This document shows positions 3,392-38,604 of a stretch of DNA of 64,000 bases, one piece after another (the stretch's first letter is position 1; each line of letters begins with the position of its first letter). A model generated the notes under the pieces. It was given only the letters and a program-made list of their open reading frames with translations. It ran no database searches and was not told the origin of the DNA. This DNA comes from a phage. The position numbers and the translations under genes are program-made. The DNA lies in assembly GCA_025812035.1 (NCBI GenBank), contig GCA_025812035.1_4719.1. The stretch is one strand, 5' to 3'.

Positions 3392-6004
3392 TTATGCGTC
3401 CGGCGTAAAATCAAAAGGAACGTCCGTACGAATGATATCATAGCGTTTTCCTAAGAAATAGAACTCCTCGGGGACCTGACCGGGAACAATACTATCGCCG
3501 ATGAACTGCGGATATGCCCAGATGTACTGAGTGAGTCCTTCGAACATATCCAGGTTATTTGCGTGGTTACCCATGATACGTTTCCAAAGTTCGCGTTTAT
3601 ACGGTGTTTTAACATCGAACCCATAAAGCGGTGCAAGATCCACACCAGGCACAAATCCCAGGTAGTAGTGGATCTGACTGACCGGGAAACCAAGCGTATC
3701 TCGCGGAATGGTGATCGCTTGCTCAGCCTTGGTGACATGCGTCTCAATAATCCAGTCGTAGCACTCCGAATAGAACCGATCGAATTTCTCTGGATTATAC
3801 CACGCTTTGGGAAGATTCAATTTCTCCGTAAAATCGTTCGACATGATCGTCGGCAAGAAAGGAAGTATGCCCGTCTTTATTTGCGTGTATTTTGATTTTA
3901 CGCGATTTACCAGATTCCAACAAGCATAACCGAGCTGATCGTTACAGAACTCAACGTACAGATCGTAATCCCCTCCCGATAATGGATTATTAATATCACC
4001 GATATCAGCTGCGTATTTGTTGGGGTATCGTGTATTAAATGCCAGTTTGGTTTGGTAATCGTAAATGCACGGTTTATTGTTCTTCGTGTTAATCCACCAC
4101 CATGGCTCACCTACCTGCACGCAAATGTCCTGGACATGAGGATAGATAATATCAGCAAATGCTGTTAACACATCCCCTAACCACGCCATCGCATGTTGGT
4201 TACATGGAGACAACAACCAAGACGGTGGCGTATATCCGGTTGCTGCTATGTTTCCTTCCCAATCCTGCTGCGCCCACTCGAATGGACACGCTGTACTCAT
4301 CAATTCGTAACTTAAACTGATGGTGACAGAGAAATGGTGTTTTGCGGCGTATGCAGCAAAGGCTTCATGCCATGCAATACAGGGTGGATTTAGTACATCT
4401 GTGGTGTTCACCAGTAACTTACCCGCACTTGGTGTCCAGACAGTATCGTAGAAATGCGACATTCCGACATAGTGCACTAATTCATCCTGATAACCCGCAT
4501 ACACCAGGTTTTCAAATACACGCTCTGGCGTGATGTTGTAATGGTCATCATAAGCGGTTATTGCACGAAGCTCATGCGGTGTGCAACGGTGACGATTAAC
4601 CGTCATTTCCTGGTACACCCCATCGATAGGAAGAATCTCGATGGTTAAACCAAGATCGATCGGCGTTTCCAGATAGGTCGTTTCTGTAGCACCTTCTTTA
4701 TAATGTCGAGAACTCATGCTGAACATCAACGATGTTACCGATTCAAGTTCGATGGGTTCGTCAGCATAGAACCCCGCCATCGCATCGTTGAAATCGATCG
4801 TCACGGTCGCACTCGTACCGTCTTTAGAAACGTCGGTTGCATATCGGGTTAATGAGATATACTGGCGACTATCGTCTTTGTGAACGACGGTTAAAACCGG
4901 TGGGTTTTCAGTATCAGCAAAATTACGCTGGTCGCCAGTAAACGTGATCTTCGCTTTAAAGATCAAACCGAATAACGACGTCATGGGGGCATACGCAACG
5001 CAACCATGATCCAGTGTATCCGTTGTTCGCCATTCTATCCCGACCAACCCGTTAGCGGTATGACATCGCATATACGCGTTAAGTACCATGTCTTCACTGA
5101 CAACCGCGAAGTTCTCTGTTGACTGACCGTTGATAATCCAATACATCGGTTGCCAAAGATTACGAGTACCTTTTGCATAGCGGTAGGTTGGCGCGCCTTT
5201 TGGGTTGCCGTTATTAAGATGGAATACAGCAGTACCTTGGTAGTGATCGTTCGTATTAATCGGAACGCTGTAAGCGTCACCGATATCCGTACGTTCGACC
5301 TTAGCGACTGTTGCGTTTTCAAACAGTCCACGTAGCGTAGGAAGACCAATATCTTCAGGCGCGTTTTCTCGACGAATCGCATCCGCGATGCGATGGGCTA
5401 AGGCGGGGTAAATGACTTCACCTTGTTGCAGGTTCGCAAGCCCTGCGAAACGATCGGGGTCGATGCCAGCAATCAATAACTCGACATCACCCTTCGTTCT
5501 ATCGTCGCGGAGGTATTTCAGTCCAGTAAGATCGAGATGTCGAATTAACGACAACAGATCGTACTTACGGTTTTCAACAGTCAGTTCGAGATCACCTGCC
5601 CAAACCAAACTTCCCTCATCCGCCGCTACTCTAACGGATTGTCGGCCTGTGGTAGATGTTGTTGTCGTTTTATTTAATTGCTCTTGTAGGAAGTCGGTTG
5701 CGAGGTCAAAGGCAACGCCGTAACGGTCAGCGACGGCTTGCATGATTTCACGTAACTGGGTATCTTCTTCAATGATAATCTTGACAGGTATTCCCAAGAA
5801 CGCTTTAGTGAGGTCCCGCTTAACCATCGAGACGAATACGGATTTGTAATACCGGCTTCCATCTTTCCCTTTAAAAAGAATGGAAGTTGTTTCGGGTGAC
5901 GATAGAACACGTGCAAATTCAACATCGTCGAATGTAAGAGAAAGTCCGTTTTTCTCGTTGGTTAATCTTAATATTTCATTTTGCGCGGTTTCATGTAACT
6001 TCAT
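3392..6004 (-). CDS. tail fibre/spike protein, member of shared-N-domain family
   Basis: 870 codons; N-terminal ~170 aa (NEILRLTNEKN...FDDVEF...YKSVFVSMVKRDLTKAFLGIPVKII...YGVAFDLATDFLQEQLNK) is homologous to the N-termini of ORFs at 12028-12555, 12712-14466 and 51773-53227; large unique C-terminal domain. Confidence 0.6.
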   Translation of the reverse strand: MKLHETAQNEILRLTNEKNGLSLTFDDVEFARVLSSPETTSILFKGKDGSRYYKSVFVSMVKRDLTKAFLGIPVKIIIEEDTQLREIMQAVADRYGVAFDLATDFLQEQLNKTTTTSTTGRQSVRVAADEGSLVWAGDLELTVENRKYDLLSLIRHLDLTGLKYLRDDRTKGDVELLIAGIDPDRFAGLANLQQGEVIYPALAHRIADAIRRENAPEDIGLPTLRGLFENATVAKVERTDIGDAYSVPINTNDHYQGTAVFHLNNGNPKGAPTYRYAKGTRNLWQPMYWIINGQSTENFAVVSEDMVLNAYMRCHTANGLVGIEWRTTDTLDHGCVAYAPMTSLFGLIFKAKITFTGDQRNFADTENPPVLTVVHKDDSRQYISLTRYATDVSKDGTSATVTIDFNDAMAGFYADEPIELESVTSLMFSMSSRHYKEGATETTYLETPIDLGLTIEILPIDGVYQEMTVNRHRCTPHELRAITAYDDHYNITPERVFENLVYAGYQDELVHYVGMSHFYDTVWTPSAGKLLVNTTDVLNPPCIAWHEAFAAYAAKHHFSVTISLSYELMSTACPFEWAQQDWEGNIAATGYTPPSWLLSPCNQHAMAWLGDVLTAFADIIYPHVQDICVQVGEPWWWINTKNNKPCIYDYQTKLAFNTRYPNKYAADIGDINNPLSGGDYDLYVEFCNDQLGYACWNLVNRVKSKYTQIKTGILPFLPTIMSNDFTEKLNLPKAWYNPEKFDRFYSECYDWIIETHVTKAEQAITIPRDTLGFPVSQIHYYLGFVPGVDLAPLYGFDVKTPYKRELWKRIMGNHANNLDMFEGLTQYIWAYPQFIGDSIVPGQVPEEFYFLGKRYDIIRTDVPFDFTPDA

Positions 6005-37375: not shown

Positions 37376-38395
37376 TTACACCGCCACCTTAGCCTTGATA
37401 GCCGGATGCGATTGATATCCAACGAACACAAAGTCTTCGTAACGGTAATCCGTAATACTTTCCGGTTTACGTACGATCGTTAGCTTCGGTAATGGATACG
37501 GCTCACGACTGAGCTGCTCTTTAACCTGTTCGAAGTGGTTGTGATAGATGTGACAATCTCCACCAGTCCACACGAACTCACCGACGTCCATATTCAGCTG
37601 TTGGGCAAGCATATGCGTTAACAACGAATATGAGGCGATGTTAAAGCTCCAACCCAAGAGCGTGTCGCACGAACGCTGATAAAGCTGACAGGATAAAGCA
37701 CGTGTTGGTACGTTATGTGTGTTCAACCAAAGTTCTATTTCACTACGTCGTACATCATCCATAACCCACTGGGTTCTTAGTACGTCGTTGCGTCGGACAT
37801 AATCAACGCGTTCATCGATCGTGAGTTCGTGGGTATAGAACTGATAGAAACTGTGGCACGGGGCGAGGTGCATGTCGTCTAAATCGCCTACGTTCCACGC
37901 GCTAACGATGATCCGTCGAGAATCAGGATCTTCTTTAAGCTGACGCATCACGTTTGCAATCTGATCGTGATGTTTAACATACACGAGGTGTTTTAGCATA
38001 CCGTCGTTAAGAATACCACAATACTCGTAACCGCGTTGCATCAACTCGCGAGTACGTTCTGTATCGTGCGGAACAACCACTTTGTAGTCAATCCATTCCC
38101 GCCATTGGCTACCGTAAATCGGTCCTAGATTCCCTTCTTCGTCAGCCCACTCATTCCAAATACGAACACCGTTATCTTGAAGATAAGCAACGTTTGTATC
38201 ACCATTAAGAAACCAGAGCAGTTCGTGGATAACGCTCTTAAGGTGAATCTTCTTAGTGGTTACCAGCGGGAATCCTTTCTTCAAGTCAAAACGCATTTGA
38301 CGTCCGAATACCGAACGGGTACCAGTACCTGTGCGGTCGGCTTTATCGCGACCATTATCCATGATGTCTTGCAAAAGGTCCAAATACTGTTTCAT
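37376..38395 (-). CDS. thyA: thymidylate synthase with two large insertions
   Basis: strong collinear match to ThyA: [40 protein letters not shown], catalytic [31 protein letters not shown]; 339 aa versus ~264 for typical ThyA, owing to two inserted segments. Confidence 0.9.
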
Positions 38396-38604
38396 TTTAA
38401 TCCTCTAAGTGTTTTAACTAGTTCCTGTAATTTGTAATGATATTTAGAATCGCTTAACGTGTAGCAGCAACCACGTAACACGTTATACGCGAAATCAGCT
38501 TGTAAACCACGAACCTTCGGATCCGATGATAGGTTCAATGACGCATCATCAAAAATCCACGCTTCAATGTTCCTCTTAGATTCCTTCGTTAACATCGTTC
38601 TCAC
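38392..38604 (-). CDS. hypothetical protein
   Basis: 70 codons; 4-nt overlap with thyA start. Confidence 0.4.

Follow-up and report, generated by a model that had tools for sequence, protein, structure and literature searches.

Two predicted folded modules inserted into the conserved large domain of a jumbo-phage thymidylate synthase

The 64,000-nucleotide stretch of phage DNA analyzed here (hereafter, the window; contig GCA_025812035.1_4719.1 of GenBank assembly GCA_025812035.1) comes from a nucleus-forming jumbo phage resembling Goslar and probably encodes a canonical, working thymidylate synthase, which, judging from sequence comparisons and structure prediction, carries two folded, putatively non-catalytic peripheral modules of old jumbo-phage ancestry. 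The gene itself is ordinary, as a phage thymidylate synthase has already been annotated in Goslar. What is worth keeping is that nucleus-forming jumbo phages share a ThyA with two, and often three, folded modules, and that the modules described here interrupt the most conserved region of an enzyme that is among the best studied.

An intact and canonical thymidylate synthase gene

The whole window has ~90% DNA identity to Escherichia coli phage Goslar (Chimalliviridae), and its thyA is equal in length to Goslar gp141, with 89.9% nucleotide and 93.8% amino-acid identity. An identical protein is already present in NCBI (EKA1377552.1, on a 238.6-kb contig). The features to which the text refers are the following:

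37376..38395, minus strand: thyA coding sequence, ortholog of Goslar gp141, 339 aa, intact and intron-less (from the ORF list and Pfam and NCBIfam scores)
38392..38604, minus strand: small upstream ORF, homolog of Goslar gp142, whose stop overlaps the thyA start as ATGA
37976..38092, minus strand: insert 1, residues 102–140, between QWREW and the helix starting HDQIANV
37856..37858, minus strand: codon of the catalytic Cys180 (E. coli Cys146), a column invariant in all alignments
37700..37831, minus strand: insert 2, residues 189–232, capping the beta-hairpin made by FYQFY and LSCQLYQR
37640..37702, minus strand: hyper-divergent patch, codons 232–252, around the site at which relatives carry an intron (codons 241/242, between window positions 37673 and 37672)

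Functionally, the protein matched PF00303 end to end (profile positions 1–266 of 266, E-value 1.9e-115, 385 bits against a cut-off of 24.3) and passed the NCBIfam ThyA equivalogs NF002499 (425.7 bits, cut-off 405) and NF002497 (419.7 bits, cut-off 327), as well as TIGR03284 (361.1 bits, cut-off 108.35), with the ThyA equivalogs and PHROG 160 "thymidylate synthase" being its best profile matches. The original prediction, made from the letters of the DNA, held that the context of the catalytic cysteine is kept, and this is borne out by the alignments, in which Cys180 and all the catalytic residues are present. The nucleophile, C180, sits with H181 in an LAPCH motif, and the dUMP phosphate-binding set is retained (R21, R160, R161, R241, and S242, corresponding to R21, R126′, R127′, R166, and Ser167 of the E. 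coli enzyme), all of these columns being invariant or nearly so in a 40-sequence alignment. Also kept are the uracil-specifying Asn252 (E. coli N177), Q240, and the folate and proton-relay residues E58, W80, W83, Y94, D244, H282, and Y284, the last three of which correspond to E. coli D169, H207, and Y209.

The annotated start is correct, because the N-terminus aligns from residue 1 to E. coli MKQYLELMQKV, a GAGGA ribosome-binding site is found upstream of thyA, and the start codon shares an ATGA with the stop codon of the ORF before it; a misassigned start, which had been named as a possible source of the extra length, is thereby ruled out. Given the same overlap, the upstream ORF and thyA are probably co-translated. 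This small ORF had no family match in PHROGs, and a gp142 homolog beside thyA is not conserved in other genera.

Evolutionarily, a recent capture of a host thyA was ruled out, since DNA identity to E. coli thyA is only ~67%. At the protein level, the window core is 70% identical to E. coli ThyA, and in a neighbour-joining analysis restricted to the core it was as close to Ralstonia (71%) as to Enterobacterales (69.5%), with a specific Enterobacterales affinity appearing solely in the group of CR5, Phobos, and Asesino.

Placement and predicted fold of the inserts

A phmmer search against the PDB broke the match to E. coli thymidylate synthase (TS) into three collinear blocks (query residues 1–101, 141–188, and 233–339 against E. 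coli residues 1–101, 107–154, and 158–264), from which insert 1 is placed at residues 102–140 and insert 2 at residues 189–232. The protein had been described as collinear with bacterial ThyA but about 75 aa longer, owing to two in-frame inserts, one after the WREW region and the other between FYQFY and CQLYQRSCD; each part of that description stands, the inserts lying exactly where they had been located and the net extra length relative to E. coli ThyA being 75 aa (339 − 264). Insert 1 stands in for the 5-residue E. coli loop PTPDG, and insert 2 for the 3-residue hairpin turn ADG.

Structure prediction has both inserts folding as extra units on the ThyA core. In an AlphaFold monomer model built from the 40-sequence alignment (pLDDT 95.2, pTM 0.92), insert 1 forms a strand-helix-hairpin unit (strand 101–107, helix 112–120, strands 124–130 and 135–143; pLDDT 94–97), and insert 2 a three-helix unit (helices 193–202, 204–209, and 217–226) on the extended strands 181–190 and 232–244 (pLDDT 84–97). 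Structure prediction, proposed earlier as a check, thus gives both inserts confident folds. Even in a model built from 12 close sequences, with a poorly predicted core (pLDDT 66), the inserts were confident. When the model was compared with the PDB by Foldseek, E. coli TS was the top match (E-value 1e-41, TM-score 0.96 normalized on the target), and no solved TS covered the inserts (TM-score 0.75 on the query).

Module 1 comes after the helix bearing Tyr94 and Gln97 and before the helix leading to the Arg160/Arg161 pair, whereas insert 2 lies ~nine residues along the strand from the catalytic cysteine. By homology to the human and E. coli enzymes, insert 2 would emerge at the rim of the dimer interface, because it caps a hairpin whose two strands form part of the sheet at that interface. 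The interface-strand peptide of TS is LSCQLYQR (PMC8041318), and Tyr187 of the window protein, the residue preceding insert 2, aligns with human TS Tyr202, which is found at the perimeter of the inter-monomer interface (PMC9831607). In the human enzyme, this interface is under current investigation as a site for drugs. The part of TS known to vary is the small domain, which walls the folate site, and not the large domain (PMC6479881); in the window protein, both inserts sit in the conserved large domain and the small domain is without extra residues.

A trademark of jumbo-phage thymidylate synthases

The inserts are a trademark of a jumbo-phage ThyA family, the insert-bearing (chimallivirus-type) group being defined operationally in this analysis, and are not peculiar to the window phage. 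Both insert sites are filled in the ThyAs of Goslar, SPN3US, Caitlin, Asesino, CR5, Phobos, phiKZ (fnug), 201phi2-1, and Xoo-sp14, and the insert-bearing clade also takes in Erwinia and Cronobacter phages and >100 metagenomic clusters formed at 50% identity. An HMMER search with residues 96–240 against 1.84 billion cluster representatives returned 443 matches below 1e-10, and among the best 150 of these most span both inserts in one stretch. Structurally, the top match in BFVD was B3FJL1, the thymidylate synthase of 201phi2-1 (TM-score 0.93, rmsd 2.5, 36% identity); as this TM-score is normalized on the query, the inserts are included in the superposition. The idea that the insertions belong to this protein in particular was therefore not upheld, as they are homologous, positionally fixed modules across a large clade of jumbo-phage ThyAs. 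The converse suggestion, that the extra length might come from segments common to many ThyA proteins, holds within the jumbo-phage clade; of the enzymes compared outside it, E. coli ThyA, the T4 enzyme, and the best-matching 80 cellular loci of a GTDB species set, these 80 all being of canonical length, have neither insert.

Each module has a recognizable signature. Insert 1, a module of 36–48 aa following Q-W-R-x-W, shows the family motif W-x-D-x-[KR]-[IV]-[IV] ... G-[YF] ... G, which window residues 101–140 fit as WIDYKVV...RGYEYCG; insert 2, a module of 40–73 aa, shows T-x-E-[LM]-[ST]-x-x-E-R ... [VI]-P-x-R-x-L-S-C, fitted by window residues 188–236 as THELTIDER...NVPTRALSC. In phiKZ, 201phi2-1, and many metagenomic members, a third insert follows I-W-D-E-W in the small domain; the window protein and all enterobacterial members are of canonical length at this site, and the third insert is therefore optional and does not define the group. 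Nor is the pair always complete: Erwinia phage Stratton shows a clean loss of insert 1 that its congener Asesino does not share, so this natural deletion makes insert 1 dispensable at least in Stratton, and ThyAs with insert 2 alone or insert 1 alone also occur.

An insert-only tblastn against 50,697 phage records recovered only the ThyA of Goslar and, weakly, that of Stratton, and nothing outside ThyA. No conserved partner gene was found beside thyA, the flanks being unrelated among Goslar-, SPN3US-, CR5/Phobos-, phiKZ-, and 201phi2-1-type phages, and PHROGs held no family for the ORFs flanking thyA. No description of these inserts was found in the literature searched.

Selection on the inserts and an intron-associated patch

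Between the window and Goslar, dN/dS was 0.20 for insert 1, 0.10 for insert 2, and 0.01 for the core outside the hyper-divergent patch, and on these sequence-based estimates the inserts are selected, under purifying selection. Across genera, identity falls to 14–37% in the inserts, compared with 48–73% in the core, and insert 2 ranges from 40 to 73 residues, with conserved stems and with tips that vary in sequence and length. Such low identity and such a range of lengths would be equally compatible with decoration under loose constraint and with an interface that co-evolves. The G+C content and codon usage of the inserts are like those of the remainder of the gene (44–45% vs 47%).

The window allele was said to hold neither intron nor intein, which agrees with its continuous 339-codon ORF and with the lack of any Rfam intron family match in the gene. 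In a close relative (L173), thyA carries a 1107-nt group I intron between R241 and S242 that encodes a 284-aa GIY-YIG ORF, and the spliced product is 339 aa long and 96% identical to the window protein. The intron site in relatives is nine codons downstream of insert 2, and their intron endonuclease is of the GIY-YIG/NUMOD3/I-TevI-DNA-binding type, resembling I-TevI and I-BmoI. The intron-less allele of the window is heavily recoded just 3′ of the R241/S242 junction, and in alleles without the intron the recoding of the homing site extends to residues that do not vary among the cellular enzymes sampled. Within the patch (codons 232–252), 6 of 21 codons agree with Goslar at the third position, compared with 258 of 318 elsewhere, and seven amino-acid haplotypes occur among 13 near-identical phages. 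Recoding around the homing site accounts for the unusual active-site strands MLLARSQD and FYMMRSND of some relatives, and thyA provides a clean natural example of intron-endonuclease pressure.

What the modules might do

We posit that the enzyme would convert dUMP and methylene-tetrahydrofolate to dTMP through an E. coli-like core, into the large domain of which two autonomously folding modules would have been inserted in an old jumbo-phage ThyA ancestor, and that both modules would have been inherited from it and kept by purifying selection. The modules would themselves be non-catalytic, and their most likely site of action would be the periphery of the obligate dimer, which they may enlarge or stiffen, or where they may offer a docking surface for a phage partner, with four modules per dimer. 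The enzyme is probably active in the cytoplasm and not inside the phage nucleus, as a thymidylate synthase–GFP fusion was excluded from the nucleus of phage PhiPA3 (PMC9067925).

Several other accounts of the inserts have to be weighed against this one. It is possible, though on balance unlikely, that they are tolerated decorations at two permissive surface sites, lacking any specific role but structurally entrenched, such that their loss would destabilize the protein, and kept by purifying selection for folding alone. The conservation of stems alone beside variable tips, the low inter-genus identity of the inserts relative to the core, the loss of insert 1 in Stratton, the existence of single-insert ThyAs, and the lack of a conserved partner gene nearby would all be expected of such decoration; it sits less easily with the retention of both modules, with their motifs and the same predicted fold, across divergent phages whose cores are only ~55% identical, with an insert dN/dS of 0.1–0.2, and with the tendency of phage genomes to shed useless sequence. 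We are more doubtful that the modules are docking surfaces for phage-specific partners, in line with the original prediction that they may be extra surface elements for phage-specific interactions. The candidate partners would be further enzymes of phage nucleotide metabolism, in a dNTP-synthesis complex like that of T4, or the phage nucleus at its surface, such that dTMP would be made where it is consumed. The insert-bearing clade does largely coincide with nucleus-forming jumbo phages, the inserts lie exposed on the surface of a conserved large domain in which little else varies (PMC6479881), and fast-evolving tips would fit co-evolution with lineage-specific partners, but no conserved adjacent gene was found, the published fusions are diffusely excluded from the nucleus and not shell-bound (PMC9067925), and the TS of SPN3US was seen merely as a trace contaminant of mutant particles (PMC5694885).

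Two further explanations carry less weight. That the enzyme has shifted to another reaction or substrate, the inserts contributing to the shift, seems very improbable; it might then be, for instance, a dUMP or dCMP hydroxymethylase that supplies a modified base. Although thymidylate synthase homologs do act as hydroxymethylases in other phages (PMC7824862) and some relatives have the unusual active-site strands noted above, the latter are explained by recoding at the intron homing site, and the window protein keeps Asn252, Tyr94, His181, Gln240, Asp244, His282, and Tyr284 and scores above the ThyA equivalog cut-offs. We give almost no credence to the inserts being relics of mobile elements, whether degenerate inteins or in-frame remnants of introns or homing endonucleases, even though the thyA of relatives hosts the 1107-nt intron with its GIY-YIG endonuclease only nine codons past insert 2. 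The inserts, with 39 and 44 residues, are much too short to be inteins, mini-inteins being ~130 aa or more. They have no intein junction residues, no repeats flanking either of them, no Rfam intron match, and no similarity outside ThyA, their composition and codon usage are ordinary for the gene, and both are confidently folded and conserved across the clade. Mobile-element origin was rejected on these grounds, with the Rfam, flanking-repeat, composition, and insert-only tblastn checks all negative.

Beyond the preferred reading, in which a canonical synthase carries peripheral non-catalytic modules, a bolder variant can be imagined, which we hold to be improbable: that the modules at the interface rim are a platform, specific to nucleus-forming jumbo phages, that links dTMP synthesis to a phage partner, or else that they exert allosteric control via the interface strands. 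The partner of such a platform would be either the phage nucleus, through its cytoplasmic face, or a complex for nucleotide synthesis. If this were true, the modules would be a handle on how a DNA compartment that excludes metabolic enzymes is fed.

Comparison with known thymidylate synthases

Among the Chimalliviridae, Goslar gp141, SPN3US gp100, phiKZ gp235, and 201phi2-1 gp350 have the same insert sites, motifs, and predicted fold as the window protein. Most of the differences between Goslar gp141 and the window protein fall in three short hot spots, one of them at the active-site strand (MLLARSQD in Goslar, QLYQRSCD in the window), whereas phiKZ (488 aa), 201phi2-1 (457 aa), and Xoo-sp14 (407 aa), with cores 55–59% identical to the window core, have a third, large small-domain insert that the window protein is without.

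The E. coli enzyme (PDB 2TSC, 1TYS, and others) has its fold and its catalytic and ligand-binding residues in common with the window protein, and the interface strand is identical in the two, but it has PTPDG and ADG where the window protein has 39 and 44 residues. T4 TS has extra residues in the small domain and near the C-terminus, and none at either insert site. A dCMP hydroxymethylase of the T4 gp42 type has Asp at the uracil-specifying position, whereas the window protein retains Asn252.

With respect to introns, T4 td (I-TevI) and Bacillus mojavensis thyA (I-BmoI) carry a group I intron in the gene, as do relatives of the window thyA, in contrast to the window allele itself. The relatives' intron site is presumably displaced 21 nt upstream from the one in T4 td. 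Their insertion point, between CGT and AGT (Arg and Ser of YQRS), agrees with the −2 G/−1 T context of I-BmoI (PMC3161791).

No solved TS shows anything comparable to insert 2, but lineage-specific insertion into this very conserved enzyme has precedents. Lactobacillus casei and Enterococcus faecalis TS have a small-domain insert of ~50 aa, at a site that many relatives of the window protein fill, as the L. casei-type enzymes do, and the window protein does not. The "eukaryotic inserts" of human TS are another such case, and the 8-residue one at residues 146–153 falls in what we take to be the same loop as insert 1 of the window protein.

Identity and architecture of the viral ThyA

As judged by sequence and predicted fold, the window enzyme is a normal, dTMP-forming thymidylate synthase. 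The features of the locus are as follows:

37376-38395, minus strand: thyA ORF, 339 residues
37976-38092, minus strand: insert 1, residues 102-140, replacing a five-residue E. coli loop
37700-37831, minus strand: insert 2, residues 189-232, replacing a three-residue E. coli hairpin turn
38392-38604, minus strand: upstream ORF of 67-70 aa, homolog of gp142 of Escherichia phage vB_EcoM_Goslar (85% identical), in ATGA overlap with the thyA start

The protein matched the Pfam thymidylate synthase model over its full length (E 1.9e-115), scored above curated cut-offs for three NCBIfam ThyA equivalog models, and had its best matches among solved structures in E. coli thymidylate synthases. Collinearity with bacterial ThyA and a preserved catalytic-Cys context, both proposed in the original prediction, were borne out, with residues 1-101, 141-188 and 233-339 aligning to E. 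coli residues 1-101, 107-154 and 158-264, and with every residue known for catalytic importance in place (R21, E58, W80, W83, Y94, R160/R161, C180, H181, Q240, R241, S242, D244, N252, H282 and Y284). Residues 102-140 therefore stand in for a five-residue loop, and the two inserts together give a net gain of 75 residues over E. coli, matching the predicted excess of about 75. A misassigned start does not account for this length: residues 1-11 line up with the N-terminus of the E. coli enzyme, eight bases 5' of the ATG there is a GAGGA, and this ATG overlaps (ATGA) the stop of the small upstream ORF, so that on sequence grounds there is no doubt about the assigned start codon. The overlap also suggests translational coupling. 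The upstream ORF had no family match and no counterpart beside thyA in other genera, and a search for any small neighbour gene kept beside thyA across genera found none.

The inserts are in frame, as predicted; the thyA frame is uninterrupted in the window, an Rfam search of the window gene returned no intron, and a search for repeats flanking the inserts found none. At 44-45%, their G+C content resembles the 47% of the remaining gene. The window thyA shares 89.9% DNA identity with gp141 of Goslar, a nucleus-forming jumbo phage of 237 kb, and the surrounding 24 kb share 90.6% with Goslar across 95% of their length. In Goslar, hypothetical genes surround thyA and two predicted terminators lie upstream of it. 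This thyA belongs to a known enzyme family as an ordinary representative and has already been annotated in Goslar; an identical protein is deposited at NCBI under the name 'thymidylate synthase [Escherichia coli]', encoded on a contig of 238.6 kb.

Distribution of the inserts

Whether the extra segments are common to many ThyA proteins has a divided answer, since they occur clade-wide in jumbo phages but neither is present in the E. coli and T4 enzymes, nor in any of the best 80 matching cellular loci listed from one genome per bacterial species (0/80; spans of 774-831 nt). A protein search returned hundreds of ThyA of 339-353 residues, 63-66% identical to the window protein and encoded on contigs of ~220-250 kb, all with both inserts; in the phage collection, the same architecture was found in SPN3US, SPFM phages, Cronobacter phage CR5, Phobos, Proteus phage 7, E. 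coli phage EC001, and Erwinia phages Caitlin, Asesino, phiEaH2 and Machina. When residues 96-240 (insert 1, the 48-residue core block and insert 2) were scanned with HMMER against 1.84 billion cluster representatives, 3526 matches fell below 1e-3 and 443 below 1e-10, and most of the top 150 spanned the entire query in a single stretch. In IMG/VR, site 2 was filled by 30 or more inserted residues in about 25 of 80 viral loci.

A 40-sequence alignment placed 36-48 residues at site 1 in most members (versus 8 in canonical forms) and 40-73 at site 2 (versus 5). In many members the small domain holds a third insert (16-104 residues), and there are single-insert forms with only insert 1 or only insert 2. 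Across the whole set, insert 1 keeps the motif W-x-D-x-[KR]-[IV]-[IV] ... G-[YF] ... G, and insert 2 keeps T-x-E-[LM]-[ST]-x-x-E-R ... [VI]-P-x-R-x-L-S-C. With a distant insert-bearing member as query, the best phage matches were all chimalliviruses, including 201phi2-1 (457 aa), phiKZ-type phages (488 aa) and Xanthomonas phage Xoo-sp14 (407 aa). The inserts are thus a clade-wide trademark of jumbo-phage thymidylate synthases and not peculiar to this phage.

The contig of a distant insert-bearing thyA has a Goslar-like neighbourhood (DUF4262 protein, ribonucleotide reductase, NAD-dependent ligase). Separately, NZ_CP173450.1, a 221,873-bp circular replicon deposited as a 'plasmid' in the complete genome of E. 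coli strain 98232, holds an SPN3US-like insert-bearing thyA, hypothetical genes and a giant transglycosylase-domain protein, and is probably a jumbo phage genome assembled together with its host; many similar contigs (~220-226 kb) occur in E. coli, Shigella and Salmonella isolate assemblies.

Predicted structure

AlphaFold, run on the 40-sequence alignment, gave a model with mean pLDDT 95.2 and pTM 0.92; both inserts were folded with confidence, as they had been even in a first run with a poor core. Insert 1 is predicted to comprise strand 101-107, helix 112-120 and the beta-hairpin 124-130/135-143, and insert 2 three helices (193-202, 204-209, 217-226) atop a lengthened core hairpin (181-190 and 232-244), with the conserved residues of both located in their stems. 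The model core matched E. coli thymidylate synthase with a target-normalised TM of 0.96 and a query-normalised TM of only 0.75, and the inserts are therefore uncovered by any solved thymidylate synthase. Among predicted viral structures, the best match was the 201phi2-1 enzyme, 36% identical and with a query-normalised TM of 0.93, and the modules are thus conserved in structure.

The known variable part of thymidylate synthases is the small domain, the large domain being the conserved core (PMC6479881); both inserts lie in the large domain. Their placement relative to the dimer interface was taken from homology to known enzymes. Insert 2 begins at the hairpin's far end, nine residues from the catalytic Cys along a strand, and the final residue preceding it, Tyr187, aligns with human Tyr202, a perimeter residue of the monomer-monomer interface that lies against Phe59' of the other subunit (PMC9831607). 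The strand following insert 2 is LSCQLYQR, a peptide reported to bind at the human monomer-monomer interface (PMC8041318).

Selection and possible role of the inserts

Between the window and Goslar (dS ~0.4-0.5), dN/dS was 0.20 for insert 1, 0.10 for insert 2, and 0.01 for the core computed without the recombinant patch, and thus both inserts are under purifying selection that is looser than that on the core. Between genera, inserts are 14-37% identical and cores 48-73%. Erwinia phage Stratton (305 aa; locus L005, 301-1218) has lost insert 1 cleanly and in frame (QWRAWMGPGYETIDQ) but kept insert 2, and Asesino of the same genus (locus L009, 301-1320) keeps both, a natural deletion experiment for insert 1.

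The inserts are real and selected, and we judge both modules to be non-catalytic. The original observation is confirmed, and its interpretation, extra surface elements for phage-specific interactions, is partly supported. Our best-supported reading is that the modules would be a peripheral elaboration of the obligate dimer, which could act as a stabilising extension of the dimer interface or as a docking surface. A reading that competes seriously with this one is neutral decoration that has become entrenched. GFP-fused thymidylate synthase is kept out of the PhiPA3 nucleus (PMC9067925), which by analogy makes a cytoplasmic location likely, and in SPN3US particles the enzyme has been seen as no more than a trace contaminant (PMC5694885). 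There is apparently no published study of the inserts' role, and this gives the finding modest interest.

In an identity matrix and tree, the cores of CR5, Phobos and Asesino group with Enterobacterales ThyA (80-84% identical) and are only ~55% identical to phiKZ-type enzymes with homologous inserts; either these cores evolve slowly (rate heterogeneity) or they were homogenised with host-like sequence while the inserts were retained. The window core has no specific affinity (69.5% to Enterobacterales, 71% to Ralstonia).

A putative intron homing site and its recoding

The window and Goslar ThyA show few differences outside three hot spots:

37640-37702, minus strand: codons 232-252, third positions matching Goslar at 6/21 versus 258/318 elsewhere, synonymous divergence saturated
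37982-38014, minus strand: codons 128-138, tip of insert 1, where Goslar reads VVDAGMVKHLL and the window differs
37859-37870, minus strand: codons 176-179, just before the catalytic Cys, HLAP versus ALPA in Goslar

The predicted lack of an intron holds for the window allele, but close relatives carry one, of group I type, at R241|S242. Two 249-residue proteins of the same 90% cluster end after LSCQLYQR, and from these we traced a split thyA that explains the patch at codons 232-252. In L173, a 237-kb Goslar-like contig from a Salmonella assembly, exon 1 ends in CAG CGT, and a 1107-nt intervening sequence (4724-5830), starting after T and ending in G, separates R241 from S242; it encodes a 284-residue ORF with GIY-YIG, NUMOD3 and I-TevI DNA-binding domains (PDB 1i3j, E 4.6e-9) and gives a weak, partial Rfam group I match (16 bits, E 0.34). 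Joined in silico, the exons yield 339 residues that share 96% identity with the window ThyA and include the canonical SADVFLGVPFNIASY, the window being the intron-less allele. Among 150 representatives of insert-bearing ThyA, 41 end at most 14 residues past LYQR, many with a shared read-through peptide, K-x-x-C-A-[FL]; from these sequences, the intron seems widespread in jumbo-phage thyA, and gene callers seem to report truncated 'exon 1' proteins for intron-bearing genes. On the contig of the distant insert-bearing thyA, the large ribonucleotide reductase subunit carries intein and LAGLIDADG domains, a further case in these phages of a mobile element lodged in a gene for nucleotide metabolism.

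Over the 42 nt upstream of the site, the window and the intron-containing allele are identical; of the 30 nt immediately downstream, 16 differ, after which identity returns. Goslar is recoded on either side. Across 13 near-identical phages, residues 236-253 (18 residues) form seven amino-acid haplotypes, variable columns are concentrated within 237-253 (9/17 versus 31/322 elsewhere; Fisher 2e-5), and haplotypes at the homing site and the other two hot spots all assort freely, a pattern indicating frequent short-patch recombination. Residues invariant in 29 sampled cellular enzymes are altered in the window (L246 for Phe, S250 for Pro) and in Goslar (L239 for Tyr, A240 for Gln, A179 for Pro), and the window has W249 where cellular ThyA has V/L. 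A large SPN3US-like group (contigs ~225 kb) carries the non-canonical core motifs NPCHNYFQFY and SCFYMMRSND, coinciding with the Goslar-group hot spots at the catalytic-Cys strand and homing site, and ELVYSGVDVHLY further downstream, which may reflect endonuclease escape carried further, or changed function.

The recoding has the appearance of homing co-conversion or of selection for intron-less alleles that resist the endonuclease, and it is an additional, more dynamic feature of the thyA locus. For another gene, an intron endonuclease has been shown to mediate interference between chimalliviruses that infect together (PMC11620839). The insertion point falls between Arg and Ser of YQRS (CGT|AGT) and fits the -2 G / -1 T context reported for I-BmoI, the endonuclease of the Bacillus mojavensis thyA intron and an isocaudomer of I-TevI (PMC3161791).
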